A stretch of 64,000 nucleotides of DNA from positions 685,414 to 749,413 of the forward strand of contig JADJWH010000001.1 of assembly GCA_016716465.1 (NCBI GenBank). Direction: 5' to 3'. Positions 2,355-22,138 of the stretch are shown piece by piece. This stretch comes from Gammaproteobacteria bacterium (GTDB taxonomy: Bacteria; Pseudomonadota; Gammaproteobacteria; SZUA-140). A model generated the notes under the pieces. The model saw nothing but the letters and a program-made list of their open reading frames with translations. It was not told the origin of the DNA and did no database searches. Each line of letters opens with the position of its first letter. Position 1 is the stretch's first letter. A program made the position numbers and the translations under genes.

Positions 2355-2363
2355 AGAACCCGA

Positions 2364-2424: not shown

Positions 2425-2455
2425 CCTTGTCATACCGGCTAACGAGGAGACCAGA

Positions 2456-2761: not shown

Positions 2762-2762
2762 C

Positions 2763-4577: not shown

Positions 4578-4585
4578 GCCGAACG

Positions 4586-5800: not shown

Positions 5801-5810
5801 AACCGGATGC

Positions 5811-5836
5811 GGGGACAGATTTATAAATCTGTCCCC
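5811..5836. repeat. 25-bp palindromic REP-like element GGGGACAGATTT-N-AAATCTGTCCCC
   Basis: ggggacagatttataaatctgtcccc, in the ureF-ureG spacer. Confidence 0.8.
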
Positions 5837-5875
5837 ATTTACTGAGTCCTTAGTCCTCTCTTTAACGAGGTAATT

Positions 5876-6490: not shown

Positions 6491-6494
6491 ATGC

Positions 6495-6644
6495 CAGGAC
6501 CAGGGACTAAGCAACAGTAGATCCCGCTGATTACGGAGGGAGGGTTGGCCTAGATACTGCGTGGAGATAGAGAGTGTTAAGTCCCCGGATTCCGCTGCGC
6601 TCCATCCGGGCTACAGTTTAATATTTTAATTAGTCCGGGTCCTG
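6495..6644. repeat. Composite intergenic structure: a GGACTAA-family inverted pair flanking a CCCGGATT...ATCCGGG hairpin repeat (6573-6604)
   Basis: caggaccagggactaagc ... ttagtccgggtcctg; the inner element is ccccggattccgctgcgctccatccgggctac. Confidence 0.4.
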
Positions 6645-6683
6645 TCTATCCGCTTTCCGCGTCCACGCCCGGCGGTGTAATCT

Positions 6684-8996
6684 ATGCGGATGCCCGCGGC
6701 ACCCGTACCGACGCAATATCCCGTCCTCCGCCAACTCAAACGCCCCGCGCTGATCCTGGCGGGGTTGCTGATCATATATGCGCTCGCGGGATTTATCCTC
6801 CTGCCCGCAATCGCGCGCTCGCAGGCCGTGGATATCCTCAAGGAGCGTTACCGTCTCGATCTGGAGATCGGCAAGCTTCGCTTCAACCCGTTCACCTTTT
6901 CCGCGCGTCTCGAAGGCGTGAGCCTGAGCGATCCGGGCGGCGAGCGGCTGCTGGCGTTCGCGGCCTTTGGCGCGGATTTCGAGCTGCGCTCGCTGATCGA
7001 TCGGGCCCTGGTCTTCAAGTCGGTCACCTTGAGCCGGCCCTATGTGCACATTCATCTGCGTGAGGACGGGACGGTGAACCTGGCGCGGGCCTTCGCGTCA
7101 CCGCCGGGCGAGACTGCCGATGACGGACCCGCTTCGGCGCCCCCGGCACTGATCATCGGGGACATCGCGCTGAACGGTGGAGACCTGCACTTCACGGACA
7201 ATTCTCAGGGCCGTGATTTCGATCAGCACTTCACGCCGCTCGACCTGCACGTACAGCGCTTCTCGACGCGGCCGGAGGATCGCTCCGATCTCGTCGGCCT
7301 GAACATCAGTATCGGTGAGAGCGGGCGGCTAACGGTCTCGGGCGATCTGTCGGCCATCCCGACCCGTTTCGATATTCAACTCGCTGCACGCGGCATCCCG
7401 CTGGCCATCTTCCAGCCCTATCTTGAGGATCGCCTGCCGGCACGTATCAGTGACGGGTCGCTCGACTTCGATCTCTCGCTCGCGCAGGGGGAGCCGGGAC
7501 AGACCTCGCGACTGAAGCTGAGCGGCAAGGCCGCCATTCGCGGGCTCGCGGTCAAGCTCAAGGAGCGCGACGATGTGGCGCTGGCCTGGGAAGAGGTGGC
7601 GGCGAACGGCATGACGCTGGATCTGAGCCCCGATCGTCTCGCCATCGGCGAGATCGCCATCCGCGGGCTCGATACCTCGTTCAAGATCTACGCCGACGGC
7701 CGCACGAACGTCAGCGAGATGGCGCGCCAGGCGCGCGGGGAGTCGCCGGAATCCGCGGCGATGGCGCCGGAGGAACCGGCAGCGGCGGGTACGGATTCGA
7801 CGACGTCCGGCTTTCCATACGCAATCGACCGCGTCGTCGTCGCCGGTTCGCACCTGATGTTCAGCGACACACAGATCCAGCCGAACGTGCGGATACGCAT
7901 CGAGGATCTTGCCGGCGAGATACGCGGCATCGCCTCCGCTCCCGAAGCGCAAACGACCATCGCGCTCACCGGCCGCGTCGGCGAATATGGGAAGGCGAAG
8001 ATCGACGGCGCGGCGCGACTCGCGGCGCCCAGGCAGGACCTGAAGGCCAGGGTCACGTTTGATAACGTCGAGCTGACCTCGTTCTCGCCCTACGCGGGCA
8101 AGTTCGCCGGTTACACCATCGACAAGGGCAAGCTGTTCCTCGATCTGGACTACACCCTGGCCGGCAGCCGCATCCGGGGCGAGAATCACGCCGTGTTCGA
8201 TCAGTTCGAACTCGGCGACAGGGTCGACAGCGCGGATGCCCTCAAGCTGCCCATCAAGTTCGCGCTGTCGCTGCTGCGCGACCGCGAAGGCCGCATCGAC
8301 ATCGATCTGCCGGTGGAAGGCGATGTCGACGCGCCCGGTTTCAGGCTGGGTCCGCTGGTCGTCAAGGCGCTGGTCAATCTGGTCACGCGTATCGTCACCG
8401 CGCCTTTCGATTTCATCGCCGGCATGTTCGTTGGCGGGCCGGAGATGGAATACGCCGTATTCGCGCCGGGCGACGGCGCGCTGCCCGGCGCGGAGCGCGA
8501 AAAGATCCTGCCCCTGTCGCGCGCGCTTGCCGAACGGCCGCGCCTCGTGGTCGAGGTCCAGGGCTGGGCGGATCCCGGCGCCGATGCCGTCGCCCTGCGG
8601 CAGGGCAAGTTCGATGCCTTGCTGGCCGCCGCAGGCCCGCCCACGGACGCCGCGCTGGTCACCGCGTACGACGGTTTTTTCGGCGCCGGCGCCGTGGCCG
8701 CGTTGCGCACCGAACTTGCGGCCGGAGCCCGGTCCGATCCGGCGGCGGAGCCTGCCGGAGAGATGCCCGCCGATCCCGAGGCAGCGTTCCGGGCCGAGTT
8801 GAGCAATCGTCTGCTCGCCGCCCAGCCGGTGACCGACGAGGAACTGGCGGCGCTCGCCTATGCCCGCGGCGAACAGGTGATGGGCCTGCTCGTACAGGAC
8901 GGCGGCGTGGAGGCGGAGCGCGTCTTCGTGCGCCGGGGCGAGATTGCCCGCGACGGCGAGGGCACGAGGGCGAAACTGATCCTCGATGCGCGCTAG
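6684..8996 (+). CDS. Large membrane-anchored protein, DUF748/AsmA-like (function unknown)
   Basis: 770-aa ORF. N-terminal TM helix LILAGLLIIYALAGFILLPAI, then a long beta-rich, low-complexity body. The family assignment is from memory only. Confidence 0.55.
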   Translation: MRMPAAPVPTQYPVLRQLKRPALILAGLLIIYALAGFILLPAIARSQAVDILKERYRLDLEIGKLRFNPFTFSARLEGVSLSDPGGERLLAFAAFGADFELRSLIDRALVFKSVTLSRPYVHIHLREDGTVNLARAFASPPGETADDGPASAPPALIIGDIALNGGDLHFTDNSQGRDFDQHFTPLDLHVQRFSTRPEDRSDLVGLNISIGESGRLTVSGDLSAIPTRFDIQLAARGIPLAIFQPYLEDRLPARISDGSLDFDLSLAQGEPGQTSRLKLSGKAAIRGLAVKLKERDDVALAWEEVAANGMTLDLSPDRLAIGEIAIRGLDTSFKIYADGRTNVSEMARQARGESPESAAMAPEEPAAAGTDSTTSGFPYAIDRVVVAGSHLMFSDTQIQPNVRIRIEDLAGEIRGIASAPEAQTTIALTGRVGEYGKAKIDGAARLAAPRQDLKARVTFDNVELTSFSPYAGKFAGYTIDKGKLFLDLDYTLAGSRIRGENHAVFDQFELGDRVDSADALKLPIKFALSLLRDREGRIDIDLPVEGDVDAPGFRLGPLVVKALVNLVTRIVTAPFDFIAGMFVGGPEMEYAVFAPGDGALPGAEREKILPLSRALAERPRLVVEVQGWADPGADAVALRQGKFDALLAAAGPPTDAALVTAYDGFFGAGAVAALRTELAAGARSDPAAEPAGEMPADPEAAFRAELSNRLLAAQPVTDEELAALAYARGEQVMGLLVQDGGVEAERVFVRRGEIARDGEGTRAKLILDAR

Positions 8997-9010
8997 GCGC
9001 ATGACCATTG

Positions 9011-9035
9011 GGGGACAGATTTGAAATCTGTCCCC
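9011..9035. repeat. 25-bp palindromic REP-like element
   Basis: ggggacagatttgaaatctgtcccc. Confidence 0.8.
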
Positions 9036-9050
9036 GTACACTACATCTCC

Positions 9051-10262
9051 CTACACCGCGCGCCGCGCGGCTTGCGAGCCCCAGATGAAAGACGCGTGCC
9101 GCCGCCACGCATCGGCGAGCGCGTGGCGGATATCGTCCGGTCCCAGGGCGGCGAGCCGGGCCAGGCGTTCGTTGAGGGCTGTGACACGGTCCAGGTAGGC
9201 GATCTCGTGCGCGATGCGTTCCATTACGCACTCGGGGTCGTCTTCCTCCAGCGTCCAGCGCGCCTGCAGTTGAGCGAGATGGCGAACCAGCTCCTCGCGC
9301 CCCGGTCCATGCTGGATCAGCGCTTCCATGACGGATTCGACCGCCGTGGCGCAGCGTCCTTCCATGCCGGGTTCGCAGCGCACGCGGATCCACCAGAGAC
9401 CGCAATCGCTATAGAGCTCCAGACGGGACTCGACTGCATATGCGAGCCCGAGCCGTTCGCGCAACTCGTATTGCAGACGTGCGGAGAGCGGCGCCCCGGC
9501 GGCGATCTGTTCCGCGAGCAGCAATGCCGGATAGGCCGGTTCGCCCAAGGTCGGTACCGGCATCAGCCAGAGCAGGTCGGAACCGTCGCCGCCCGCGGGT
9601 CCGTGCAGGGAGCAGGGCGTGAATTCCGCTGGCGGCGCATCGCGCTGATCCCCGGCGGGCAGTTGCTCCAGCGCACGACAGGCCTCCACCAGTTCGTCAT
9701 GACGGACATCGCCCGCCGCCACGACCCAGATCGCGGGACCGCGCAGACGGGACGCGCAATATTCCTGCACTGCCGCGGCATTGGCCCGGGGTCTGTTCCC
9801 GCTCCCCAGGATCGGCCGGGCGAGCGGGTGTCCATCCCAGACGCGCCGGAGCGCGAAGGCCTCCTGCTCGTCCCACAGGGACTGCGAGGCCATCCGGCGC
9901 TCATGCCATACCGCGGGCAGTTCGGCGGCAAGTTCCTTCGCCCCGAGGCGCGGTTCGAGCAGCAGGGCGGCGAACAGGCCTGCCAGCGCGCCCACGCGAT
10001 CACCGGTCACCAGGCCGTGAAAGGCGGTAAGTTCACGCATGGTGCGGGCATTGACATGACCGCCCAGCACCGCGAATTGGTCGGTGTAACGACCGCCGCC
10101 GTGGAACAGCAGATGCTCGAGCAGGTGCGCGTAGCCATCCTGGCCGGGGGTTTCGTGGCGTGAACCGTTGCGCAACCAGAGCCCGAGTGACGCGCTGCGC
10201 CGGCCGGGCAGCGGGCGGCTCAGGACGCGGACACCATTCGCGAGTGTGGTACAGGCCGTCAT
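9051..10262 (-). CDS. M16-family (pitrilysin/PqqF-like) zinc metallopeptidase, last gene of the riboswitch-controlled ABC operon
   Basis: Inverted zinc motif HLLEHLLFHG (HxxEH), then VLGGHVNARTMRELTAF, matching the M16 N-terminal signature. The start overlaps the ATPase stop (ATGA, 10259-10262). Confidence 0.75.
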   Translation of the reverse strand: MTACTTLANGVRVLSRPLPGRRSASLGLWLRNGSRHETPGQDGYAHLLEHLLFHGGGRYTDQFAVLGGHVNARTMRELTAFHGLVTGDRVGALAGLFAALLLEPRLGAKELAAELPAVWHERRMASQSLWDEQEAFALRRVWDGHPLARPILGSGNRPRANAAAVQEYCASRLRGPAIWVVAAGDVRHDELVEACRALEQLPAGDQRDAPPAEFTPCSLHGPAGGDGSDLLWLMPVPTLGEPAYPALLLAEQIAAGAPLSARLQYELRERLGLAYAVESRLELYSDCGLWWIRVRCEPGMEGRCATAVESVMEALIQHGPGREELVRHLAQLQARWTLEEDDPECVMERIAHEIAYLDRVTALNERLARLAALGPDDIRHALADAWRRHASFIWGSQAARRAV

Positions 10263-11070
10263 GCCGGTTCCGCCGTGGGCTTCGGAGAGACGCCGGTGTA
10301 ATAATCCTCCCGCGCCCGCAGCAGGCGCAGCGCGTCGTCCCTCTCGACGTCGCGGCGCGTGAGCGGGATATCAAAGGTGATCGTGGCGCCGAAGCGTTCC
10401 GGCGCCTGCGCATCGCGCCGTACCTTGTCGAATACCAGCAGGCGCGTGCCGAGGGCGAAGGCTTCCTTCAGGTCATGGGTGATCATGAATACCGTCATGT
10501 CGGTCGCGCGCCACAGGCCGAGCAGCAGGCGGTGCATATCGGCCCGGATCCCCGGGTCGAGGGCGCCGAACGGTTCGTCCAGCAGCAGGATCTTCGGACG
10601 CTTGATCAGGGCCTGCGCGATGGCGAGACGTTGCTGCATGCCTCCGGACAGCGCGCTTGGATACTTGGCGGCCGCCCCCTCCAGCCCCACCGACTGCAGG
10701 GTCTCGTCGACACGGGTGAGCGCCTCGCGCCGCGCCGCGCCGAACAGCCGGCCGCTCAGGGGAGAGGCGCCGAGCTCGAGGCCGAGCAGGACGTTGTCGC
10801 GCACCGTCAGGTGCGGAAAGACCGAATAGCGCTGGAACACGATGCCGCGTTCCGGTCCCGGCTCGGCGCGCAGCGGCGCGCCGTCGAGCTCGATTGCGCC
10901 GCGGCTCGGGGATTCCTGGCCGAGCAGCATGCGCAGGAAGGTGGTCTTGCCGCACCCCGAGGCGCCGACGATGGTGCAGAATTCGTGTTCCTGCACGGTC
11001 AGATTGATGCGCTCGAGGACGACCTGCGCCTCGTACTGCTTCCAGACATTGCGGATGACGAGCCGGCTCA
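10259..11070 (-). CDS. ABC transporter ATP-binding protein (NitT/TauT family)
   Basis: MSRLVIRNVWKQY...GASGCGKTTFLRML...LSGGMQQRLAIAQAL...LLLDEPFGALD. The probable start is the ATG reverse-complemented at 11068-11070; the longer ORF reaching 11275 is a GC-rich extension. Confidence 0.85.
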
Positions 11071-11892
11071 TGCGCGCGGCATCTCCGCGTGATACCAGGG
11101 GAACAGTCGCCGCGACAGCCGGCGCAGGAGCAGGTCGAAGGCATAGGCCAGCAGGGTGATCCAGGCGACGTAGGGCAGGATGAGGTCCATGGCCAGATAG
11201 CGCCGCACCAGAAAGATGCGATAGCCGAGTCCGTCGGTCGCCGCGATCGCCTCGGCCGCGATCAGGAACAGCCACGCCGCGCCCAGCGAGAGCCGGACCG
11301 CGTCGAGCAGGCGCGGCAGGATCTGCGGCAGCACCACGCGCAGGATGACCAGCCAGGTCGAGGCGCCCAGGGTCTGGGCCTTGATCAGCTGTTCCGGCGG
11401 GATCTCACCCGTGCGCAGCGCGAGGTCACGGATCAGGAAGGGCGTGATGCCGATGACGATCAGCACGATCTTCGAAACCTCGCCCAGCCCGAACACGATG
11501 AACAGGATGGGCAGGATCGCGAGCGGCGGAATCAGCGAGAGCACCGCCACCAGCGGAGCGAAGGCCGCGCGCAGGCGCGGGATGACGCCGATCAGCACGC
11601 CCGCCGCCAGCCCCAGCAGGGCGCTGATCAGGATGCCCGAGCCCAGACGCAGCAGACTGCTCGCGGTGTCCTTCCACAGCAGGATATCGCCGCTGCGCGC
11701 GTCCGGCTCGAAGGCGACCTGCTGGATGGCCGCGCCGAAGGCGGCGAAGGAGGGCAGCAGCTTGTCATTCGGATTCGACGCGAGACGCAGGTCCGAGCCG
11801 ACGATGTAGGCCGCCACGATCAGCAGGAAGGGCAGCGCGCCCAGGGCGAGCGCGCCGGACCTTCCGGGATGCTGATTGAGCAGGCGGGGCAT
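11068..11892 (-). CDS. ABC transporter permease (NitT/TauT family)
   Basis: Polytopic membrane protein containing an EAA-like loop (AAEAIAATDGLGYRIF). Confidence 0.85.
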   Translation of the reverse strand: MPRLLNQHPGRSGALALGALPFLLIVAAYIVGSDLRLASNPNDKLLPSFAAFGAAIQQVAFEPDARSGDILLWKDTASSLLRLGSGILISALLGLAAGVLIGVIPRLRAAFAPLVAVLSLIPPLAILPILFIVFGLGEVSKIVLIVIGITPFLIRDLALRTGEIPPEQLIKAQTLGASTWLVILRVVLPQILPRLLDAVRLSLGAAWLFLIAAEAIAATDGLGYRIFLVRRYLAMDLILPYVAWITLLAYAFDLLLRRLSRRLFPWYHAEMPRA

Positions 11893-11895
11893 GGA

Positions 11896-12975
11896 CTAGA
11901 GATTGCCGTCCGCCGCCATCTTCATGTAGGCCGAGGTGAAGCGCAGCTTGACGTTGCCCTTGTCGCCGAGCAACTTGTCACCGGGGAAGCTGATCCCGAC
12001 CGCATCGACGCTGCGCGCACCCTCGCCGAGGATCCCGTGGTCGAAGGAAAATGTGCGCACATGGTCCATGGTCTGGATCAGATCCGCACTGTCGGTGAAC
12101 TTCACCGCGTCGGCGGCGGCATAGAACATCTTGGTGGTCTTGAGCTGGCTGTCATAGCCGGCGAGATCGGTGCCGGAGGCCTGGCCCATGTGGGTCCGCG
12201 CCGCGGCGCCCGCCGCATCCTTGGCGGACATCAACGCCATCGTCTCGTACCAGGCGCCGGTGAGCGCCTTGCCGAGGGCCGGATTGGCGCTGAGCGTCGC
12301 GCTGTTCACCACCATCATATCGATGATCTCGCCGGGGATCTGGCTGGAATCGAAGACGGGTTTGGCGCCCGGCATGGCCGTGACTTCGCTCAGCTGCGGG
12401 TTCCAGGTGACCAGGGCGGTGACATCCGGCGAGGAAAAGGCGGCAACGATATCGGCGTCGGAGGTATTGACTACGGTGATGTCCTTCTCCTTCAGACTGA
12501 CCGTATCGAGCGCGCGCGCGAGCAGATAATGCGAGACCGAGAGCTCGACCAGATTGACCTTCCTGCCCTTGATGTCCTTCAGTGCGGCGGCGTTCTTCAG
12601 GATGATGCCGTCGTTGCCGTTGGAGAAGTCGCCGACGATCAGGGCGGTGGAATCGACGCCGCCGGCGGCCGGGATGGTCAGGGCGTCCATGTTGGTCATC
12701 ACGCAGCCGTCGAAGGCGCCGGCGGTGTACTGATTGATGGATTCAATGTAGTCGTTGATCTGCACCACCTCGATATCGATGCCGTACTTGTCGGCCCATT
12801 TCTTCACGATGCCCTGGCTGGCGGCGTATTCCCACGGCATCCACCCGACGTAGATGCTCCATGCGACGCGGAACTTGGTCTTCTCGGCGGCGAGCGCGCC
12901 GGGGGCGGCGCCGAACATCAGGAGGGCGAAGGCGAGCAGCAATGCGGATACGGCGGAAACTCTGGACGTTTTCAT
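11896..12975 (-). CDS. ABC transporter periplasmic substrate-binding protein (NitT/TauT family); candidate guanidine-binding protein
   Basis: Signal peptide MKTSRVSAVSALLLAFALLMFGAAPGALA. AAGGGGA Shine-Dalgarno sequence before the ATG (reverse complement of 12973-12975). It sits downstream of a guanidine-I riboswitch. Confidence 0.85.
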   Translation of the reverse strand: MKTSRVSAVSALLLAFALLMFGAAPGALAAEKTKFRVAWSIYVGWMPWEYAASQGIVKKWADKYGIDIEVVQINDYIESINQYTAGAFDGCVMTNMDALTIPAAGGVDSTALIVGDFSNGNDGIILKNAAALKDIKGRKVNLVELSVSHYLLARALDTVSLKEKDITVVNTSDADIVAAFSSPDVTALVTWNPQLSEVTAMPGAKPVFDSSQIPGEIIDMMVVNSATLSANPALGKALTGAWYETMALMSAKDAAGAAARTHMGQASGTDLAGYDSQLKTTKMFYAAADAVKFTDSADLIQTMDHVRTFSFDHGILGEGARSVDAVGISFPGDKLLGDKGNVKLRFTSAYMKMAADGNL

Positions 12976-13137
12976 ATTTTCCCCTTGAGCTGTCAGTTCT
13001 GTTGCGTCAGACCGAGTGCCGGGGAGGTATGCGCCGAGACGGACCGGAGAAGCCGGCAGGCACCGTCAGGACATCACACATCCGCGGCCTGTGCCTCCCG
13101 GGCTTTTATCCCGCCGTGTATCCGAGCTCTCCGAACC

Positions 13138-13166
13138 GGGGACAGATTTATTTATCCGATCTGTCC
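13138..13166. repeat. Degenerate REP-like palindrome inside riboswitch 2 (P2-region hairpin)
   Basis: ggggacagatttatttatccgatctgtcc. Confidence 0.5.
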
Positions 13167-13216
13167 GCGTGTCGTGCCGCCCGGACTGCATCCCTTGGAC
13201 CAGCCATCCCTGGGAA

Positions 13217-13241
13217 CGGGGACAGATTTAAAATCTGTCCC
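13217..13241. repeat. 25-bp REP-like palindrome forming the P1a-position hairpin of riboswitch 2
   Basis: ggggacagatttaaaatctgtcccc, directly downstream of CUAGGGUUCCGG on the minus strand. Confidence 0.8.
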
Positions 13242-13600
13242 CGGTACAAGAGACCGGAACCCTAGATGCTCTGAACAGGGTTTAGCAATTAGCATGCCGC
13301 GCCCATGGGCAAGGCCTGTGGCGCGAGCTAACAGATTGACTGTTCTTGCATTCGCCTGTGCGATCTTCACCGTGGCTCGCGCATGACTGAGCCCGCGCGA
13401 CAGTCCGTCGCGAATAATTGCCCCATCATGGTGAGGCGACACTTCGAAATGCGCGGAAATGGTGCCTGATAAGCGAGTCAGGGCCGGGCGCACGGCGCGT
13501 GTTCCGCGGGAATCCGTGCCGGCATTCCATCATCGAACTGTTGGCTATTCCATCACTTAGCCGATGGCACGCATTGTCCCGGTTCATGCCTGGTGCAGGA

Positions 13601-13616
13601 TGGTACGCCGCTTGCA
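13601..13616 (+). promoter_or_regulatory. Sigma-54-type promoter candidate (TGGTAC-N5-TTGCA) driving the gdmH leader
   Basis: GG-N10-GC spacing is exact and the -12 TTGCA is perfect, with one mismatch at -24. The predicted transcription start lies ~40 nt before the aptamer. Confidence 0.35.
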
Positions 13617-13666
13617 ATCTCACAGGGCAAGCGGCCATGGCCGCGATAATCAGCCTATCAGGATGA

Positions 13667-13793
13667 CTAGGGTTCCGGTTCCGCGTGGTACGCGGGGACA
13701 GATGTAAATCCGTCCCCGATGGCGATGCGGGGCGACTGGTCCGAGAGTCATCGGCCTCCGGCGCGGAGGTTACACGGCGGGATAAAAGCCCGG
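13667..13793 (+). promoter_or_regulatory. Guanidine-I (ykkC-type) riboswitch aptamer in the gdmH leader
   Basis: CUAGGGUUCCGG ... GGUCCGAGAG ... ACACGGCGGGAUAAAAGCCCGGGAGAG. All three hallmark ykkC blocks are present in the correct order. Confidence 0.8.
13694..13717. repeat. REP-like palindrome (one arm mismatch) embedded in the P1a-position hairpin of riboswitch 1
   Basis: ggggacagatgtaaatccgtcccc. Confidence 0.6.
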
Positions 13794-13817
13794 GAGAGCA
13801 GGCCTCTCTCGACTTTT
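13794..13817 (+). terminator. Riboswitch expression-platform intrinsic terminator
   Basis: gagagcaggcctctctc followed by gacTTTTGTT. The 5' half overlaps the aptamer 3' end (CCCGGGAGAG), the classic ligand-ON arrangement. Confidence 0.5.
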
Positions 13818-13850
13818 GTTCAACGGTAACCGTTCAGACCAGGAGGACAC

Positions 13851-15044
13851 ATGGCCGATTTTTCCCGATACCGTTCCCGTACGCTGAAACCTTCGCTGCG
13901 CAATCCGGCGCACCGGCACCACCCCTCGTTCGACAAGACCCAGCTGCATGGCTGGAAGGCCGCGCACAAAGAGGCCGAACTGTCACATAGCGGCTGGGAC
14001 GCGGAGGAAAGGCGCTGTCTGGAGCTCGGACTGCCGGGTGCGGACAGCATCCAGGACAAATCGATCCCCACCTTCGCCCGCGGCGAGCTGCCGCACTATG
14101 CGGGCATCAACACCTTCATGAAGGCCCCGTACTGCGAGGACATCAAGGATGTCGGCAAGTACGATGCGGCGATCATCGGCGTGCCGTTCGATGGCGGCAC
14201 CACCTACCGGCCCGGCACGCGCTTCGGGCCACAGGGCATCCGGCGCATCTCGGCGCTGTATACGCCCTATAACTACGAACTCGGCGTCGACCTGCGCGAG
14301 CAGATGACCCTGTGCGATACCGGGGACGTGTTCACGATCCCGGCCAATATCGAGAAGACCTTCGACCAGATCAGTCGCGCGGTCGGTTACGTGTTCGCGA
14401 GCGGGGCGCTGCCGATCATCCTGGGCGGCGACCACTCGATCGGATTCGCCACGGTACGCGGCATCGCGCAGCAGACCGACAAAAAGATCGGCATCATCCA
14501 CTTCGACCGCCACGCCGACATCCAGGAAAAGGATCTCGACGAGCGCATGCACACGACGCCGTGGTTCCATGCCACCAATCTGCCCAACGTGCCGGCGTCC
14601 AATCTGGTGCAGATCGGCATCGGCGGCTGGCAGGTGCCACGCCAGGCGGTGAAGGAGGCGCGCAAGCGCGACACCACGATCATCACGATGAACGACGTGG
14701 AGAAGCTCGGCCTCGACAAGGTGGCGGAGATCGCGCTGGAAACCGCCTGGCACGATGCGGACGCGGTCTATCTGAGCTTCGACATCGACAGCGTGGACGC
14801 CGGCTTCGTGCCGGGCACCGGCTGGCCGGAGCCGGGCGGTTTCCTGCCGCGCGAGATCCTCTATCTATTGGGCATGGTCGCGCGCGAGGGCATCTGCGGC
14901 ATGGAGGTCGTGGAGGTCTCGCCACCCTACGACGTCTCTGACATCACCTCGCTGATGGCGATGCGGGGCATCGTCGACGTGCTCGGCACCCTGGTCGCCC
15001 ACGGCAAGATGGGCGCGCACCGGCACATCATTCGTGGCAGGTGA
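13851..15044 (+). CDS. gdmH: Arginase/agmatinase-family ureohydrolase with a long N-terminal extension; candidate Ni-dependent guanidine hydrolase (GdmH-like)
   Basis: Ureohydrolase motifs GGDHSI, DAHAD-like HFDRHADI, SFDIDSVD. 397 aa. AGGAGG Shine-Dalgarno sequence 5 nt before ATG 13851. Directly downstream of a guanidine-I riboswitch. Confidence 0.75.
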   Translation: MADFSRYRSRTLKPSLRNPAHRHHPSFDKTQLHGWKAAHKEAELSHSGWDAEERRCLELGLPGADSIQDKSIPTFARGELPHYAGINTFMKAPYCEDIKDVGKYDAAIIGVPFDGGTTYRPGTRFGPQGIRRISALYTPYNYELGVDLREQMTLCDTGDVFTIPANIEKTFDQISRAVGYVFASGALPIILGGDHSIGFATVRGIAQQTDKKIGIIHFDRHADIQEKDLDERMHTTPWFHATNLPNVPASNLVQIGIGGWQVPRQAVKEARKRDTTIITMNDVEKLGLDKVAEIALETAWHDADAVYLSFDIDSVDAGFVPGTGWPEPGGFLPREILYLLGMVAREGICGMEVVEVSPPYDVSDITSLMAMRGIVDVLGTLVAHGKMGAHRHIIRGR

Positions 15045-15093
15045 GCGGAGGCATGGCATTGAAACTTGATCAGCCGCGCCGTGGGCGTGCTTC

Positions 15094-15121
15094 GGGGACA
15101 GATTTAATCAAATCTGTCCCC
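15094..15121. repeat. REP-like palindrome (28-bp variant)
   Basis: ggggacagatttaatcaaatctgtcccc, 50 bp past the gdmH stop. Confidence 0.8.
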
Positions 15122-15136
15122 GTTCATGCGCAGATG

Positions 15137-15208
15137 GAGCGCAGCGGAATCCGGGGATCAATTGATTGTTCCCCGGATTCCGGCGCGTTGCGCCTTCATC
15201 CGGGCTAC
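15137..15208. repeat. Inverted pair of CCCGGATTCCG(C/G)...ATCCGGGCTAC hairpin repeats
   Basis: gagcgcagcggaatccgggg, then the atcaattgat palindrome, then ccccggattccggcgcgttgcgccttcatccgggctac. Confidence 0.45.
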
Positions 15209-15446
15209 ATGGATAGCGCGCAGAGTGATCTTATTTAACCCGCCCCTGGATTATGAAATGAGCAGACATAGCCGAATGGGAAGTGATTTTTTTACAGGCC
15301 GCAAACATCTCCACGTTAAAAAACTGCGCCATTCGATGGCATTTGCGCGCGAACGTGATGCGTGATGGTGCGATTTTCTTCACTCAGGCGTTGCATAAAA
15401 ACACGGAAAAATTCTATCTCGCTAATCAATAAAGAAAATATTTTTG

Positions 15447-15461
15447 TGGCACAAAGGATGC
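15447..15461 (+). promoter_or_regulatory. Sigma-54-type promoter candidate (TGGCAC-N5-ATGCT) upstream of the OMP/urt genes
   Basis: TGGCACaaaggATGCT in an AT-rich region ~90 nt upstream of the OMP start. Confidence 0.35.
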
Positions 15462-15551
15462 TATTCCCAGTTCGTACTTTGTTCGAACAAAGCACAGGGT
15501 TGGATCAAGGCAGTTTTATCAACGTGAAATAGGTAGAGGGAGACATAGGAA

Positions 15552-16226
15552 ATGCATACGAAAAAAATCAGTCGTTTGATGCTCGCGGCCAGCCTGGCGG
15601 CCCCCGCCATGGTGTTCATGCCGATGAGCGCGCAGGCCGGCGCGACCGCCAATATCGGCGTTGCCAATATGTATCTGTGGCGCGGCATGGATGTGAGTGC
15701 CTCCGATGCACAGGTGAGCGGCACCCTGCAGTACAACGCCGACAGCGGTTTCTACGTCGGCGGCTGGGCCTCCAGCACCTGGGCCGGCGCAGGATATGAG
15801 CTCGACCTGTATGGTGGTTATGGCGGCAGCGCGGGCGATTTCAAGTACGACATCTCGTTTTGGGAGTACCTGTATCCAGAGGCCGGCTTTGTACCGGGTG
15901 ACGATGTCGGTCTCGGCGACACGGATGCCTCCGACTTGGTGCTGAGCGTCGCCTACGACATGTTCTCGGCCGCCGCCTACGTCAACACGGACAGTGATCT
16001 TCCCGATGCGGTCTATTACACCCTTGGTGTTTCCTCGGGCAAATTCGGCGGTACGTTCGGTTTCTGGACCGGCGATGATGATGCCCTGGACTACAGCCAT
16101 ATCACGCTGAGCTACAACCCGATCGAGTCGCTCACCTTCAAGCTGAGCATGGCTTCCTCGGGCGATACGGAAGTGGAAGAGGATCCCCTGGTCCAGGTTT
16201 CCTATACCTGGGGTTTTGATCTGTAA
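15552..16226 (+). CDS. Small outer-membrane beta-barrel protein (porin-like), possibly a urea/guanidine channel
   Basis: Signal peptide MLAASLAAPAMVFMPMSAQA. Alternating G/Y/S/T-rich strands. C-terminal YTWGFDL. Confidence 0.55.
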   Translation: MHTKKISRLMLAASLAAPAMVFMPMSAQAGATANIGVANMYLWRGMDVSASDAQVSGTLQYNADSGFYVGGWASSTWAGAGYELDLYGGYGGSAGDFKYDISFWEYLYPEAGFVPGDDVGLGDTDASDLVLSVAYDMFSAAAYVNTDSDLPDAVYYTLGVSSGKFGGTFGFWTGDDDALDYSHITLSYNPIESLTFKLSMASSGDTEVEEDPLVQVSYTWGFDL

Positions 16227-16338
16227 GTCATGATGTCGATCCACGCTGTCTAGACTTCGGGGGGCGGGGCCCGCGGGCGCCGTCCCCCGATTCATTTCGT
16301 CATTCACCCGCCATATACAAAAGAAGAGGAAGGGGATC

Positions 16339-17637
16339 ATGAAAAATCACAAATTGCTGAGTTGGAGGAATCTGTTTGGCTCGCTGGCTGCCGTTGCCCT
16401 GACCGCGGGGACCCTGACCGCGCAGGCCGCCGACACGATCAAGGTCGGTGTACTGCATTCGCTGTCCGGCACCATGGCGATCAGCGAGACGACGCTGAAG
16501 GACACGGTCCTGATGCTGGTCGATGAGCAGAACAAGAAGGGCGGCCTGCTCGGCAAGAAGCTCGAGGCGGTGGTGGTCGACCCGGCGTCGAACTGGCCGC
16601 TGTTCGCCGAGAAGGCGCGCGAGCTGATCCAGAAGGACAAGGTCGCGGTGGTGTTCGGCTGCTGGACCTCGGTGTCGCGCAAGTCCGTGCTGCCGGTATT
16701 CGAGGAACTGAACGGACTGCTGTTCTATCCGGTGCAGTATGAAGGCGAGGAGTCCTCCAAGAACGTGTTCTACACCGGCGCGGCGCCCAACCAGCAGGCG
16801 ATCCCGGCGGTGGACTACCTGATGAAGGACATCGGCGTGAAACGCTGGGTGCTGGCCGGCACCGACTATGTGTACCCGCGCACCACCAACAAGATCCTCG
16901 AGGCCTATCTGAAGGCGAAGGGCGTCAAGTCCGAGGACATCATGATCAACTACACGCCGTTCGGCCATTCGGACTGGCAGAGCATCGTGTCCGACATCAA
17001 GAAGTTCGGGTCCGAGGGCAAGAAGACGGCGGTGGTCTCGACCATCAACGGCGACGCCAACGTGCCGTTCTACAAGGAACTCGGCAACCAGGGTATCTCG
17101 GCCGAGGACATCCCGGTCGTGGCATTCTCGGTCGGCGAGGAAGAGCTGTCCGGTCTGGATACCGCCCCGCTGGTCGGGCACCTGGCCGCCTGGAACTACT
17201 TCATGAGCATCGATACGCCGGAAAACGCGGCCTTCATCAAGAAATGGCATGACTTCATCAAGAACCCGAAGCGCGTCACCAACGACCCGATGGAGGCGCA
17301 CGTGATCGGTTTCAACATGTGGGTGAAGGCGGTCGAGAAGGCCGGCACGACGGATACCGACGCGGTTGAGAAGGCGATCATCGGTATCGAGACGCCGAAC
17401 ATGACCGGAGGCATGGCGAAGATGCTGCCCAATCACCACATCACCAAGCCGGTCTTCATCGGTGAGATCCAGGATGACGGCCAGTTCGAGGTGGTCTGGA
17501 AGACCGACGGCCTGGTGCCTGGAGACGCCTGGTCCGACTTCCTGCCCGGCAGCAAGGATATCGAGGCCGACTGGGTGACGCTGAAGTGCGGTAACTACAA
17601 CACCAAGACCAAGAAGTGCTCCGGACAGAATTACTGA
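16339..17637 (+). CDS. urtA: Urea ABC transporter substrate-binding protein
   Basis: 432 aa, Liv-type binding-protein fold: IKVGVLHSLSGTMAISE...VVFGCWTSVSRKSVLPVFEE. Confidence 0.85.
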   Translation: MKNHKLLSWRNLFGSLAAVALTAGTLTAQAADTIKVGVLHSLSGTMAISETTLKDTVLMLVDEQNKKGGLLGKKLEAVVVDPASNWPLFAEKARELIQKDKVAVVFGCWTSVSRKSVLPVFEELNGLLFYPVQYEGEESSKNVFYTGAAPNQQAIPAVDYLMKDIGVKRWVLAGTDYVYPRTTNKILEAYLKAKGVKSEDIMINYTPFGHSDWQSIVSDIKKFGSEGKKTAVVSTINGDANVPFYKELGNQGISAEDIPVVAFSVGEEELSGLDTAPLVGHLAAWNYFMSIDTPENAAFIKKWHDFIKNPKRVTNDPMEAHVIGFNMWVKAVEKAGTTDTDAVEKAIIGIETPNMTGGMAKMLPNHHITKPVFIGEIQDDGQFEVVWKTDGLVPGDAWSDFLPGSKDIEADWVTLKCGNYNTKTKKCSGQNY

Positions 17638-17839
17638 CCGGTGGGGACGCCGGCACCGGGAATACCGGTGCCGGCGCCTCGATTTTCGAACAGTTTTCCA
17701 GATCGGTTGCATGGGCCATCCCCGCGTAGACGGGGGGCGGACACCGGGCGGCCCTGGCCGGGCGCACACCCCCTCAGACGGGGATGACGCAGCGGACGGG
17801 GCGGTTTCTCACCGCAAATTATCGAATTAGGGGCACGGC

Positions 17840-19495
17840 ATGAAGCGATTCTCCGTCGATCCGCGTGTATTGTGCCTGGGCGTGCTGTTGTTGCTGGCCA
17901 CGCTGACGCCGCCTCCGGCGCTGGCGCAGGCCCCGGCGAGTGACGAGGCCCTGAGCGAAGCGGTCGCCGGTTTCACGGCCACCGATTTCGCCGCCAAACA
18001 GTCCGTCGTGGAACGGCTGGCGCAGATGCCGCACCGCCGTACGGTCGTCATTCTGACGGCGATGCTGAATGGCGATCTGTATTATCGCAAGGACGATGAG
18101 CGTGTGGTTATCGCGCAGACCGGCGATGGGGAACTCGCGTTGTTCGATCCCGTCACCGGAGAGGCGCTGGGTGCCGCCGCCAAATCCGACCTCAAGAAGG
18201 TCACGGTCAACAATCCGCTGCGCGGCCTGCTGCGCAACGTCATCGGGCAGTTGAGCCTCTCGAGCCCTGAGCCGGTCGACCGCCTGGCCGCGGTGCGCGA
18301 GATCATGAAGGATCTGTCACCCGACGCGATCGATCAGCTGCGCGCGGCGGAGAGTCGTGAACAGGATTCCCGCGTACTGGAGCAGATCCGTGACGCGCTC
18401 GCACTCGCCGATCTGCAGGGCCAGGATAGGGCGCTGCGTCTGGCCGCCATCGAGCGCCTGGGCGCCAGCCTGGAGCCTGAGGTACGCAATCGCCTGGCGG
18501 TGCTGGCCGAACCGGACGCCGGCGGCAATATCGCCGGGGCCGACGCCGAGTTGCGCCAGGCCGCGCGAGCCGCGCTCGCGCGCATCGACAGCCGCGTGCA
18601 GTTCTATCACCTGCTGGAGACGGTATTCTTCGGCATCAGCCTGGGCTCGGTGCTGCTGCTGGCGGCGATCGGGCTGGCCATCACCTTCGGCGTCATGGGC
18701 GTGATCAACATGGCGCATGGCGAATTGATGATGATCGGCGCCTACACGACCTATGTCGTTCAGCTGCTGATGCCGCAACACATCGACCTGTCGCTGTTCG
18801 TCGCCGTGCCGCTGGCCTTCATCGTGGCAGGCCTGTTCGGGATCCTGATCGAACGCGGGGTGATCCGCTTTCTCTACGGGCGTCCGCTGGAGACCCTGCT
18901 CGCCACCTTCGGTATCAGCCTGGTATTGCAGCAACTGGTGCGTTCGATCTTCTCGCCGCTCAACCGCTCGGTCGCCACGCCATCCTGGATGAGCGGGTCG
19001 CTGGAGATCAACAGCGTGCTCTCGCTGACCTACAACCGGCTGTACATCGTCCTGTTCAGCCTGCTGGTGTTCGCCGCATTGCTGTTGATCCTGAAGAAGA
19101 GCCGGCTTGGCCTGCAGGTGCGCGCGGTGGCCCAGAACCGCGCCATGGCGCGCGCGATGGGCGTGCGCTCGGACTGGGTCGATGCGCTCACCTTCGGGCT
19201 GGGCTCCGGCATCGCCGGCGTCGCCGGGGTCGCGCTCAGCCAGCTCACCAATGTCGGTCCCAATCTCGGCCAGGCGTACATCATCGACTCCTTCATGGTG
19301 GTGGTGTTCGGCGGGGTGGGCAATCTGTGGGGAACCCTGGTCGGCGCGCTCTCGCTCGGCGTCGTGAACAAGTTCCTCGAGCCCTGGTCGGGCGCGGTGC
19401 TGGCCAAGATCTTCGTGCTGGTGGCGATCATCCTGTTCATCCAGAAGCGCCCGCGCGGACTCTTCCCGCAGAAGGGCCGGGCGGCGGAGGACTGA
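17840..19495 (+). CDS. urtB: Urea ABC transporter permease UrtB with a ~260-aa N-terminal periplasmic extension
   Basis: Signal peptide plus a HEAT-like, Ala/Leu-rich N-terminal domain, then the LivH-type permease core (GVINMAHGELMMIGAY). Confidence 0.8.
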   Translation: MKRFSVDPRVLCLGVLLLLATLTPPPALAQAPASDEALSEAVAGFTATDFAAKQSVVERLAQMPHRRTVVILTAMLNGDLYYRKDDERVVIAQTGDGELALFDPVTGEALGAAAKSDLKKVTVNNPLRGLLRNVIGQLSLSSPEPVDRLAAVREIMKDLSPDAIDQLRAAESREQDSRVLEQIRDALALADLQGQDRALRLAAIERLGASLEPEVRNRLAVLAEPDAGGNIAGADAELRQAARAALARIDSRVQFYHLLETVFFGISLGSVLLLAAIGLAITFGVMGVINMAHGELMMIGAYTTYVVQLLMPQHIDLSLFVAVPLAFIVAGLFGILIERGVIRFLYGRPLETLLATFGISLVLQQLVRSIFSPLNRSVATPSWMSGSLEINSVLSLTYNRLYIVLFSLLVFAALLLILKKSRLGLQVRAVAQNRAMARAMGVRSDWVDALTFGLGSGIAGVAGVALSQLTNVGPNLGQAYIIDSFMVVVFGGVGNLWGTLVGALSLGVVNKFLEPWSGAVLAKIFVLVAIILFIQKRPRGLFPQKGRAAED

Positions 19496-19498
19496 GCC

Positions 19499-20629
19499 AT
19501 GCTGTCACGCGGACTCGTACGCAGCCTGCTCGAAAGCGATCGCGGCGGACAGATATTCCTGCTCATCCTGGCCGCCGTCGCGGTGGCGATCCCGGTGGCC
19601 AACCTGCTGATCCCGGAGGGCTCGCCGCTGCATCTCTCCGCCTACACGGTCACGCTGTTCGGGAAATACCTGTGCTATGCGCTGCTGGCGCTGGCGCTCG
19701 ACCTGATCTGGGGCTATTGCGGCATCCTGAGCCTGGGGCACGGCGCCTTCTTCGCCCTGGGCGGCTACGCCATGGGCATGTACCTGATGCGCCAGATCGG
19801 CGACCGCGGCGTGTACGGCGATCCGGTGCTGCCGGATTTCATGGTGTTCCTCAACTGGCAGGAACTGCCGTGGTACTGGTTCGGCTTCGACCAGTTCTGG
19901 TTCGCGCTGGCCATGATCGTGCTGGTGCCGGGCCTGCTGGCCTTCGTGTTCGGCTGGTTCGCCTTCCGGTCGCGGGTCACCGGCGTCTATCTGTCGATCA
20001 TCACCCAGGCGCTGACCTTCGCGCTGATGCTCGCCTTCTTCCGCAACGACATGGGCTTCGGCGGCAACAACGGCCTGACCGACTTCAAGGACATCCTCGG
20101 CTTCAATCTCCAGTCGGACGCGACCCGCGTGGTCCTGTTCCTGGCCTCGGCGCTGGCGCTCGCGGCCGGTTATCTGGCCTGCCGCTATATCGTGAACTCC
20201 AAGCTTGGGCGCGTGGTGGTGGCGGTGCGCGACGCCGAAAGCCGCGCGCGCTTCATCGGTTACCGGGTCGAGCACTACAAGCTGTGGGTATTCGTGTTCT
20301 CGGCGATACTGGCGGGCATCGCGGGCGCGCTCTACGTGCCGCAGGTCGGCATCATCAACCCGAGCGAATTCTCGCCGCTGAACTCGATCGAACTGGTGGT
20401 GTGGGTCGCCGTTGGCGGGCGCGGCACGCTCTATGGGGCGGTGCTCGGCGCCGTGCTGGTGAATTACGCTAAGACCTGGTTCACCACCGAGTTCCCGGAG
20501 GTGTGGCTGTTCGCGCTCGGCGGCCTGTTCGTGTTGGTGACCATCCTGATGCCGCGCGGGATCGTCGGCCTGTTCGCGAAGCTGCGCGGCGGAAAAGGCG
20601 CGGTGCGCAAGGCGAAGGAGGCGACATGA
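19499..20629 (+). CDS. urtC: Urea ABC transporter permease
   Basis: LivM-type permease: ILSLGHGAFFALGGYAMGMYLM. Confidence 0.85.
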   Translation: MLSRGLVRSLLESDRGGQIFLLILAAVAVAIPVANLLIPEGSPLHLSAYTVTLFGKYLCYALLALALDLIWGYCGILSLGHGAFFALGGYAMGMYLMRQIGDRGVYGDPVLPDFMVFLNWQELPWYWFGFDQFWFALAMIVLVPGLLAFVFGWFAFRSRVTGVYLSIITQALTFALMLAFFRNDMGFGGNNGLTDFKDILGFNLQSDATRVVLFLASALALAAGYLACRYIVNSKLGRVVVAVRDAESRARFIGYRVEHYKLWVFVFSAILAGIAGALYVPQVGIINPSEFSPLNSIELVVWVAVGGRGTLYGAVLGAVLVNYAKTWFTTEFPEVWLFALGGLFVLVTILMPRGIVGLFAKLRGGKGAVRKAKEAT

Positions 20630-21438
20630 GCGTCGGACCCGACGCGATGGACGGCGATGGCATGGCGCACGCCACCCCCGAGGATGCGGTGGATACCAGC
20701 CACGGCCCGATTCTGTACCTGGAGAACGTCTCCGTCAGCTTCGACGGGTTCAAGGCGCTGAACGAGCTGACGCTGTACGTCGACGACGGCGAGCTGCGCT
20801 GTATCATCGGCCCCAACGGCGCCGGCAAGACGACGATGATGGACGTCATCACCGGCAAGACGCGGCCGGATTCGGGTACGGTGTTCTTTGGCCAGACGCT
20901 CGATCTGACCCGGATGTCAGAGCCTGATATCGCGAGCGCCGGCATCGGGCGCAAGTTCCAGAAGCCGACCATCTTCCCCGCCCATACCGTGTTCGAGAAC
21001 CTGGAACTCGCCATGCAGGCCGACAAGCGCGTCTGGGCCTCGCTGTGGGCGCGCCTCTCCGCCGAGCAGCGTGACCGCATCGAGGAGGTGCTGGCGCTGA
21101 TCGGGCTCAAGGACCAGCGCGGCCTGCGCGCCCAGTCGCTGTCGCACGGCCAGAAGCAGTGGCTGGAGATCGGCATGCTGCTGATGCAGAACCCGCGCCT
21201 GCTGCTGGTGGACGAGCCGGTGGCGGGCATGACGCACCAGGAGATGGACCGCACCGCTGAACTGCTGACCGGACTGGCCGGGCGCCACTCGGTGGTCGTG
21301 GTCGAGCACGACATGGACTTCGTGCGCTCCATCGCGCGCAAGGTCACCGTGCTGCACGAAGGCCGCGTGCTCGCCGAGGGCGGCATGGACCAGGTGCAGA
21401 ACGATCCCCGCGTCATCGAAGTCTATCTGGGGGCCTGA
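20626..21438 (+). CDS. urtD: Urea ABC transporter ATP-binding protein
   Basis: GPNGAGKTTMMDVITGKTRPDSG...LSHGQKQWLEIGMLL; ATGA overlap with the urtC stop. Confidence 0.85.
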   Translation: MSVGPDAMDGDGMAHATPEDAVDTSHGPILYLENVSVSFDGFKALNELTLYVDDGELRCIIGPNGAGKTTMMDVITGKTRPDSGTVFFGQTLDLTRMSEPDIASAGIGRKFQKPTIFPAHTVFENLELAMQADKRVWASLWARLSAEQRDRIEEVLALIGLKDQRGLRAQSLSHGQKQWLEIGMLLMQNPRLLLVDEPVAGMTHQEMDRTAELLTGLAGRHSVVVVEHDMDFVRSIARKVTVLHEGRVLAEGGMDQVQNDPRVIEVYLGA

Positions 21439-21439
21439 C

Positions 21440-22138
21440 ATGCTGGAGATACGCGCGCTCAACCAGTTCTACGGTGAGAGCCATACCCTGTGGGACGTCG
21501 ATCTCAGCCTGCCGCAAGGCGGCTGCCTGTGCCTGATGGGGCGCAACGGCGTCGGCAAGACGACCCTGCTGCGCTCCATCATGGGCCTGCAGGCCATCGC
21601 CTCCGGGACCCTCCGTTTCGACGGCCAGGACCTGCATGCACGCGCCGCCGAGGGGCGCGCGCCGCTCGGCATCGGCTACGTCCCGCAGGGACGCGAGATC
21701 TTCCCGCTGCTGACAGTGGAGGAGAACCTGCGCATCGGCCTGCCGGCGCGGCGCGACGGCAACCGGCGCGATATCCCGGAGCGCATCTTCGACCTGTTCC
21801 CGGTGCTGAAGCAGATGCTGAGGCGGCGGGGCGGTGATCTCTCCGGCGGCCAGCAGCAACAGCTTGCGATCGGCCGCGCGCTCGTCCTGGAACCCACGCT
21901 GCTGATCCTGGACGAACCCACGGAAGGTATCCAGCCCAATATCGTGCAGGAGATCGGCGACATCATCCGCCGCCTGAACGAGGAACAGAACCTCAGCATC
22001 CTGCTGGTCGAACAGAAACTCCCGTTCGCGCGCCGCGTGGCGAAGGAGTTCTGCCTGATGGATCGGGGGAGGGTGGTGGCGACAGGGGATATTGGGCAGC
22101 TCAGTGAGGGATTGATCGATCAGTATTTGAAGGTATAG
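21440..22138 (+). CDS. urtE: Urea ABC transporter ATP-binding protein
   Basis: GRNGVGKTTLLRSIMGL...LSGGQQQQLAIGRALV. Confidence 0.85.
   Translation: MLEIRALNQFYGESHTLWDVDLSLPQGGCLCLMGRNGVGKTTLLRSIMGLQAIASGTLRFDGQDLHARAAEGRAPLGIGYVPQGREIFPLLTVEENLRIGLPARRDGNRRDIPERIFDLFPVLKQMLRRRGGDLSGGQQQQLAIGRALVLEPTLLILDEPTEGIQPNIVQEIGDIIRRLNEEQNLSILLVEQKLPFARRVAKEFCLMDRGRVVATGDIGQLSEGLIDQYLKV

Follow-up and report, generated by a model that had tools for sequence, protein, structure and literature searches.

In Synechocystis sp. PCC 6803, experiments have shown that NtcA activates both gdmH-ghaAB and gimABC and that a guanidine-I riboswitch adds guanidine control of gdmH; GimA binds guanidine, and GimABC is a NitT/TauT-type importer of this compound (PMC12704784). 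In Alteromonadales and Oceanospirillales, NtrC regulons that include the ure and urt genes have been predicted by comparative genomics (PMC5343134). Here we describe a gammaproteobacterial locus that resembles both systems, located in a window of 64,000 nucleotides (nt) of contig JADJWH010000001.1, the window being the whole stretch of DNA that was analysed. Between the start of an arginase-family gene (gdmH) and the stop of urtE (13851-22138), the guanidine hydrolase candidate, hairpins of the repetitive extragenic palindromic (REP) type, a gene for a 224-residue outer-membrane beta-barrel protein and urtABCDE adjoin without interruption. An initial annotation had described this order as a contiguous nitrogen-scavenging block. 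The family models agree with its gene order and coordinates, and the block is larger than had been claimed, as urease genes and a gimABC-like importer with its own riboswitch also belong to it. We conclude, with a probability of roughly 0.7, that the region is a nitrogen-starvation island of three sigma-54-dependent units (the importer, gdmH, and the barrel gene with urtABCDE) that work by the mechanism proposed below.

Like the Synechocystis module, the locus combines the same enzyme with a NitT/TauT-type importer and has a guanidine-I riboswitch in front of gdmH. In both cases gdmH and the importer have separate promoters tied to nitrogen, here by prediction, and the urea product would pass to urease. 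In contrast to Synechocystis, where NtcA acts at -42, control in our locus would run through sigma-54 and NtrC-like sites; the importer has a riboswitch of its own, the two units are divergent and would share one enhancer, ghaA and ghaB are not adjacent, and the host is a gammaproteobacterium. The regulons predicted in Alteromonadales and Oceanospirillales share with this locus a sigma-54 promoter and upstream TGCACC-N5-GGTGCA-type sites before a urea ATP-binding cassette (ABC) transporter near urease. They differ from it in that here a TorF-family barrel gene leads the unit, the word 'porin' occurring 0 times in that paper (PMC5343134).

The gdmH gene (13851-15044, + strand) encodes a 397-residue homologue of the Ni-dependent guanidine hydrolases of the arginase family. 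Its product matches the Pfam Arginase model PF00491 with 262.9 bits over residues 105-376, which assigns it to the arginase/ureohydrolase fold. It aligns with the Synechocystis guanidine hydrolase Sll1077 (7esr/7oi1) at an E value of 1.6e-167 and 68% identity over 354 aligned columns. A second putative guanidinase (9fek) follows closely with 1.4e-163, and the next ureohydrolase family reaches only 4.9e-50. The genomic context is likewise linked to guanidine, with an RF00442 riboswitch directly upstream and a divergent TIGR03427-type ABC importer. GenBank lists the product as 'agmatinase family protein', and its best NCBIfam matches are agmatinase models, all of them below cut-off, so that the gene might instead encode an agmatinase or another hydrolase of guanidino acids. 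We regard this as very improbable, in view of the match to Sll1077 against values of 1e-50 or weaker for other ureohydrolases, the gene's own guanidine-I riboswitch beside a divergent gimABC-like importer, and the presence in metagenomes of GdmH homologues (72-83% identical) that lie 3' of gimA and gimB homologues after riboswitches. The GenBank name is probably a mis-annotation, and the earlier proposal of a guanidine hydrolase candidate is upheld by the identity to Sll1077, the riboswitch and the importer.

The gdmH riboswitch spans 13656-13821 (+) and lies 3' of the first sigma-54 motif, as the initial annotation had placed it. It consists of an aptamer at 13656-13798 (RF00442, 84.9 bits against a gathering score of 63) and an intrinsic terminator whose stem (13791-13811), followed by a T-run, overlaps the 3' side of the aptamer in a terminator scan; the ligand-free minimum-energy fold of the leader forms this terminator (z = -4.45). 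The importer operon has a guanidine-I aptamer of its own at 13093-13276 (-), which scores 70.6 bits against the same gathering score and carries terminal-loop insertions of 35 and 49 nt.

Each of the three units is preceded by a sigma-54 -24/-12 motif, and all three sites have GG-N10-GC in a TGGCAC-N5-TTGCW-like context. The motif assigned to the riboswitch and gdmH, TGGTACGCCGCTTGCA, lies at 13601-13616 (+), with coordinates and sequence exactly as first reported. For the motif assigned to the barrel gene and urtABCDE, TGGCACAAAGGATGCT, its presence was confirmed and its reported end at 15461 was not, as the true span is 15447-15462 (+), one base more. The third, CGGCATGCTAATTGCT at 13299-13284 (-), was absent from the initial annotation and surfaced in an alignment and a weighted scan (score 13); it stops eight bases short of the start of the minus-strand aptamer and would serve that riboswitch and the importer operon. 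The divergent importer and gdmH promoters are ~300 bp apart.

We compared these intergenic regions between the window, a syntenic 102-kb metagenome contig (L001) and contigs L004, L005 and L007 from metagenome-assembled genomes (MAGs). The two guanidine-unit motifs were followed in L001, L004 and L005, and the barrel motif in L001-L005 and L007. The gdmH motif, TGGTACG-N4-TTGCAAT, is invariant in the window, L001, L004 and L005, whereas its flanks diverge and are rearranged in L005. A closely similar motif, TGGTACGCCAATTGCA, occurs in two further metagenome contigs (L116 and L123), where 50 nt again separate it from the aptamer core. The minus-strand motif is kept as CGGCAY-N5-TTGCW in the same four sequences, and the barrel motif, TGTGGCAC..AAG..TGC, is invariant in 7/7 aligned sequences while most of the spacer varies. 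The gdmH product is 95-97% identical in L001 and L004. These phylogenetic footprints support the view that the three motifs behave as real promoters.

Could the motifs be chance matches in front of genes that use undetected sigma-70 promoters? Their number alone would allow it: the window holds 3 matches to TGGCACNNNNNTTGCW with at most one mismatch against 1.85 +/- 1.25 expected, and 30/100 shuffles reach 3. We therefore dropped the motif count, which is not above chance, as promoter evidence and used conservation in its place. Position and conservation, unlike the count, do exceed chance. The motifs do not vary between orthologous intergenic regions while their flanks diverge, they are enriched ~20-fold or more over background in the barrel family, at least 120 metagenome contigs keep a fixed spacing between motif and aptamer, and a scan of 12900-16500 found no sigma-70-like promoter. 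Taken together, this makes a chance origin scarcely credible. TGGCACNNNNNTTGCW is matched perfectly only once in the window (36728-36743, -), ~50 nt 5' of a GGDEF diguanylate cyclase gene (35729-36679, -), and this match was set aside as unrelated to the block.

The combination of a sigma-54 promoter and a guanidine-I riboswitch is not restricted to this locus. We scanned JGI metagenomes for the invariant aptamer core CTAGGGTTCCG with TGGYAY-N5-TTGCW 20-50 nt ahead of it and found such tandems in at least 120 contigs. As we estimate a chance rate of ~6e-5 per riboswitch, these associations are real. Among the 80 contigs listed, the gap is mostly 20-25 nt, so that transcription would be predicted to start at the foot of stem P1. 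The commonest gene 3' of the tandem encodes a gimA-like (TIGR03427-type) binding protein (28/58 cases with a called open reading frame, among the matches listed), and several tandem contigs run gimA-gimB-...-gdmH, with GdmH homologues in the 72-83% identity range given above. A search of the open-access literature for guanidine riboswitches together with sigma-54, NtrC or RpoN returned only the cyanobacterial NtcA work, and sigma factors and NtrC both go unmentioned in a review of guanidine physiology from 2025.

Two NtrC-like sites that the initial annotation did not report lie midway between the divergent promoters. Site A, TGCCCCATCATGGTGAG (13419-13435), matches the consensus TGCACCA-N3-TGGTGCA at 11/14 positions, and its core is invariant in four genomes; site B, TGCGCGGAAATGGTGCC (13450-13466), lies 31 bp from A, matches at 10/14 positions and is conserved in four genomes. 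From this arrangement we infer that A and B form an enhancer shared by both promoters, with NtrC or a similar protein as the probable ligand. A further site, TGATGCGTGATGGTGCG (15356-15372), starts 91 nt 5' of the -24 motif of the barrel promoter. Its TGGTGC core is invariant in seven sequences, and the site reaches 10/14 in L004 and L007 at equal distance.

An alternative is that the sigma-54 promoters respond to an enhancer-binding protein other than NtrC and to a signal other than general nitrogen limitation. The window's own site before the barrel promoter matches at only 9/14 positions, and enteric-type NtrC sites 5' of the metagenomic tandems show a modest enrichment (22/75 contigs, where roughly 12% would be expected; among the contigs listed, a few sites are strong and stand ~98 nt 5' of the tandem), which suggests that the activator may differ between lineages. 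Given the 22/75, we did not generalise NtrC as the activator to all tandem-bearing lineages. For the locus itself, a different activator and signal seem unlikely: the conserved sites A and B agree with the NtrC consensus at 11/14 and 10/14 positions, NtrC-like sites stand at classical distances in 53/65 barrel loci (see below), no activator gene was identified in the block, and urt, amtB-glnK and ure are classical NtrC targets (PMC5343134). In our reading the activator is of the NtrC type.

The gene that leads the urea unit (15552-16226, +) encodes a TorF/Gcw_chp-family outer-membrane protein of 224 residues. The protein passes the TIGR02001 'TorF family putative porin' model with 65 bits (cut-off 47.15) and PF09694 (Gcw_chp) with 61.8 bits (cut-off 24), and its sequence reads as beginning with a signal peptide, probably cleaved after residue 29 at an AQA motif. 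An AlphaFold2 model built from a 34-sequence alignment (pLDDT 80.7, pTM 0.74) has 12 beta-strands, with residues 1-27 disordered, consistent with a signal peptide. In a Foldseek search against the PDB, all matches with E <0.001 were outer-membrane barrels, with 8-14% identity for the best of them; only generic barrels and no close solved relative were found. The predicted fold and these matches agree and support the outer-membrane barrel call. In GenBank the protein is labelled 'histidine kinase' (MBK9130657.1), probably a mis-annotation. Predicted strands one and two flank the motif NMYLWRG (residues 39-45; 15590-15700), which varies little or not at all among 34 homologues (38-89% identical to the window's protein) and could be a pore-constriction or assembly motif.

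The highest TM-scores, all to 12-stranded proteins, were obtained with intimin/invasin beta-domains (0.57), KdgM (0.50/0.62) and OMPLA (~0.45). The model resembles the KdgM/NanC porins (4fqe, 4pr7, 8xua; TM 0.43-0.62) in size, in its 12 predicted strands and in the position of its gene beside cognate uptake or catabolic genes, so that an open channel of this kind is plausible. Unlike KdgM and NanC, it has PF09694 as its only sequence-family match and shares 8-11% identity with them; the substrates of KdgM are acidic oligosaccharides. Shewanella TorF, the namesake of TIGR02001, is recognised by the same model as the window's barrel and is tied to the trimethylamine N-oxide reductase system. In the open-access literature we found TorF to be essentially uncharacterised in function, with no link to urt, amtB or sigma-54, and no experimental data on the TorF/Gcw_chp family.

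The barrel may also have no transport role and act as an anchor, an enzyme or a receptor that is merely co-regulated with nitrogen uptake genes. Its Foldseek matches do include 12-stranded non-channels, namely OMPLA and the intimin/invasin beta-domains (TM 0.44-0.57). We think such a role quite unlikely, since KdgM-type monomeric 12-stranded porins match equally well, NCBI curators named the family 'putative porin', and, as described next, the gene consistently comes first in three different operons for the uptake or assimilation of small nitrogen solutes.

To place the barrel in its family, we aligned 34 homologues, and this alignment served to retrieve 80 loci from contigs of a one-genome-per-species set; the sequences analysed numbered 84, namely the window and 83 fetched loci that have a homologue. 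A sigma-54 motif (at least 13/15 within 300 nt upstream of the barrel gene) is present in 66/84 sequences, 30-200 nt and typically 40-130 nt before the start codon, against a background of 0.022 per 200 nt. By our own tally, 24/25 urt-linked loci for which 150 nt or more of upstream sequence is available have it. In 2.47 Mb, both strands included, only 67 sites score 14 or higher, and most of these are the sites before barrel genes. NtrC-like 17-mers (at least 10/14) lie within 250 nt 5' of the motif in 53/65 distinct barrel loci, against 0.157 expected per locus, mostly 80-135 nt upstream, i.e., at the classical enhancer distance. As the barrel loci are phylogenetically related, these enrichment figures are descriptive and are not to be read as probabilities.

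The barrel gene comes first before urtABCDE in 27 sequences, before glnK-amtB in 28 and before a formamidase gene in two. Most of the 27 urt-linked sequences are without gdmH, and 16 of them have the order ureG-barrel-urtABCDE. The guanidine module lies between ureG and the barrel gene only in the window, L001-L003, L004 and L005, which indicates that the pairing of barrel and urt is older than the gdmH neighbourhood. In a rough neighbour-joining tree, the urt-linked barrels fall mostly into one clade that includes the window's protein. The initial annotation had suggested that the barrel may be the dedicated outer-membrane channel for urea or guanidine. The conserved synteny in 27 sequences argues for urea, and no tie to guanidine was found; 'dedicated' to urea is unproven, because glnK-amtB and formamidase operons are headed by barrel genes from other clades.

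These other operons raise the possibility of a general nitrogen-starvation channel for ammonia/ammonium, urea and short amides, with the position before urtA being one of several interchangeable ones. Homologues behind the same sigma-54/NtrC-like promoter head glnK-amtB and formamidase genes, and in four loci urtABCDE is followed by barrel-glnK-amtB. The close relative L007, which has neither the guanidine module nor urtABCDE, keeps the barrel without Urt: at 5088-13479 it carries ureG, a DUF748 gene and a barrel gene (80% identical) with a predicted sigma-54 promoter, and then dapD. On the other hand, the separation in the rough tree of a mostly urt-linked clade from the amtB-linked barrels suggests orthologous specialisation. 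A general channel is quite possible, although we rate it below even odds. For the family as a whole, we favour a nitrogen-starvation channel that admits urea or small nitrogen solutes like it, as its promoters and operon contexts suggest.

The formamidase-linked loci have a counterpart in Methylophilus methylotrophus, whose FmdC is a short-chain amide/urea porin (TCDB SAP family 1.B.16); its gene accompanies those for a formamidase and a urea/amide ABC transporter, and these substrates induce it. FmdC is a larger porin from a different family than the TorF-type barrel. In a Thioalkalivibrio MAG (L049, 10001-13673) and in L031, a formamidase gene (PF03069, 632 bits) comes after a barrel gene that has a sigma-54 motif, and L049 also encodes a UrtA-like binding protein (48% identity) further downstream. 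The order barrel-formamidase-UrtA-like in L049 mirrors the fmdC-fmdA/fmdDEF logic of methylotrophs, a likeness in genomic logic only. An open-access literature search returned nothing that links TorF, Gcw_chp, TIGR02001 or PF09694 to urea, ammonium, Urt, AmtB or NtrC, which is weak evidence of novelty.

We propose the following mechanism for the island. When nitrogen is limiting, all three promoters would be activated by NtrC in its phosphorylated form, or by an enhancer-binding protein closely related to it. Bound at 13419-13466, this activator would drive both divergent ones: leftward from 13299-13284 through the guanidine-I riboswitch into the gimABC-like importer, and rightward from 13601-13616 through the riboswitch with its intrinsic terminator into gdmH. 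Both leaders would terminate, or stay closed, unless guanidine binds the aptamer. Activation by starvation and completion only if guanidine is present would thus amount to an AND gate for the importer and GdmH. The promoter at 15447-15462, with its upstream NtrC-like site, would serve the TorF-family barrel gene and urtABCDE, probably as one transcript. GdmH would convert guanidine into urea and ammonium, the neighbouring urease would then hydrolyse the urea, and the barrel would give urea, or comparable small polar nitrogen solutes, a way through the outer membrane to UrtA. That guanidine use is conditional on nitrogen limitation, through NtrC/sigma-54 control combined with a riboswitch, had been suggested by the initial annotation; the order promoter-aptamer-terminator supports this idea, as does, by analogy, the NtcA precedent in Synechocystis.

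Several observations weigh against this reading. No GhaA/GhaB (HypA/HypB-like) nickel chaperones are encoded within 10 kb of gdmH in the window or in L001. The nickel chaperones nearest to gdmH are those of ureE/F/G, and the guanidinase loci of comammox Nitrospira likewise occur without GhaA/GhaB (PMC11410670). The terminator scan gave no clear expression platform or terminator for the minus-strand riboswitch, and no T-run terminator between gdmH and the barrel promoter, so that read-through from gdmH into the barrel-urt unit is possible and the boundaries we draw at these two places are putative. A 12-stranded fold alone is no proof of a pore, as OMPLA and the intimin beta-domains match the model equally well, and the source organism is an uncultured MAG, known here from its sequence alone. 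To these we add the unremarkable motif count in the window, the 9/14 site, the modest enrichment of NtrC sites before the tandems, the other operons headed by barrel clades and the barrel that L007 retains without Urt.

The spacer between gdmH and the barrel promoter contains two REP-type palindromes (15094-15208), identified by repeat counts, and the reported REP after gdmH is therefore real and of two types. The hairpin GGGGACAGATTTAATCAAATCTGTCCCC at 15094-15121 belongs to a GGGGACAGAT...ATCTGTCCCC family whose half-sites match 30 times in the window (4.2 expected), a number reached by 0/100 shuffles. The second type is a palindrome ending in CTTCATCCGGGCTAC at 15208, and its 15-base core has 4 matches in the window against 0.1 expected. 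REP hairpins also sit in the P1b/P2 terminal loops of both aptamers, at 13138-13168 and 13218-13242 in the minus-strand aptamer and at 13694-13717 (P1b) in the plus-strand one. As both aptamers score above the Rfam threshold, they appear to tolerate the mobile palindrome as a stem extension. The insertions are present in both aptamers of L004 as well, and in neither L001 nor L005. A REP-like motif was also seen at 36747-36761, beside the perfect sigma-54 match.

All five subunits of UrtABCDE (5/5) score above their NCBIfam cut-offs, in operon order. The urea-binding protein UrtA (16339-17637, +) matches TIGR03407 with 577.7 bits (cut-off 492.75) and is followed on the same strand by the permeases UrtB (17840-19495; TIGR03409, 436.9 bits) and UrtC (19499-20629; TIGR03408, 465 bits) and the ATPases UrtD (~20626-21438; TIGR03411, 397.5 bits; start taken from the L001 gene call) and UrtE (21440-22138; TIGR03410, 324.7 bits). 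The spacers in the barrel-urt unit measure 112 and 202 nt. A GC-rich hairpin (16259-16288, +) between the barrel gene and urtA was found by folding, with a weak z of -1.77 for the whole spacer, and was not called as a terminator in the scan; it may act as a partial terminator or RNA stabiliser that modulates read-through. The block ends at urtE, because dapD and dapC come next, on the opposite strand.

The importer is encoded on the minus strand at 10259-12975. Its gimA-like substrate-binding protein (11896-12975) is of the TIGR03427 type within the NitT/TauT family (579.8 bits, cut-off 333.9), its permease (11068-11892) matches the TauC/NitT type, and its ABC ATPase gene (10259-11071), also present in L001, starts with an ATG at 11071 that overlaps the stop of the permease gene. 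By analogy with Synechocystis GimABC, whose NitT/TauT type it shares, it is a likely guanidine importer. Between ureG and this importer (6684-10262) lie genes for a DUF748/YhdP-like protein (770 residues) and an M16 peptidase pair, an arrangement kept in L001, for which no obvious link to nitrogen scavenging was found.

The urease cluster ureD-(ureAB)-ureC-ureE/F-ureG (988-6490, +) was recognised by PF01774 for UreD, by NCBIfam models for UreC, UreE and UreG, and by synteny in L001. It would consume urea derived from GdmH or imported by Urt. A sigma-54-like sequence, TGGCAATAAACCTGCA (1020-1035, +), read in the window only, lies at the very start of ureD (988-1944, +; PF01774), behind an AT-rich stretch and abutting candidate start codons, and may give the urease operon a nitrogen-controlled promoter as well, which would be the fourth. 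Within ureC, an antisense match to the Rfam family 5_ureB_sRNA (2912-3198, -; 111.9 bits) was set aside as a small RNA. The definition of this family rests on an antisense RNA of Helicobacter, which overlaps urease coding sequence, and the match is hence most likely a by-product of coding conservation.

Every component of the block is of a known kind, and no change of paradigm follows from it. What appears to be new is a widespread sigma-54 version of the guanidine gate and a testable role for an uncharacterised outer-membrane family. It is tempting to speculate further, at slightly less than even odds, that PF09694 comprises unrecognised gammaproteobacterial outer-membrane channels for nitrogen scavenging, NtrC/sigma-54-induced and 12-stranded, with subclades for urea (Urt), ammonia/ammonium (AmtB) and short amides (formamidase), and that the sigma-54/guanidine-I tandem is a widespread AND gate, the proteobacterial counterpart of NtcA plus riboswitch. 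Such a tandem is also a compact two-input genetic switch, and the GenBank labels of the barrel and gdmH products could be corrected. Among the nitrogen currencies of soils, sediments and the ocean, urea, ammonium and guanidine are key ones. How they pass the outer membrane when present at nanomolar to micromolar concentrations usually receives no attention; for Urt and Amt, assigning this barrel family in a way that can be tested would fill that step. The tandem, in turn, suggests nitrogen-gated guanidine assimilation outside the cyanobacteria, which bears on the ecological role of guanidine.

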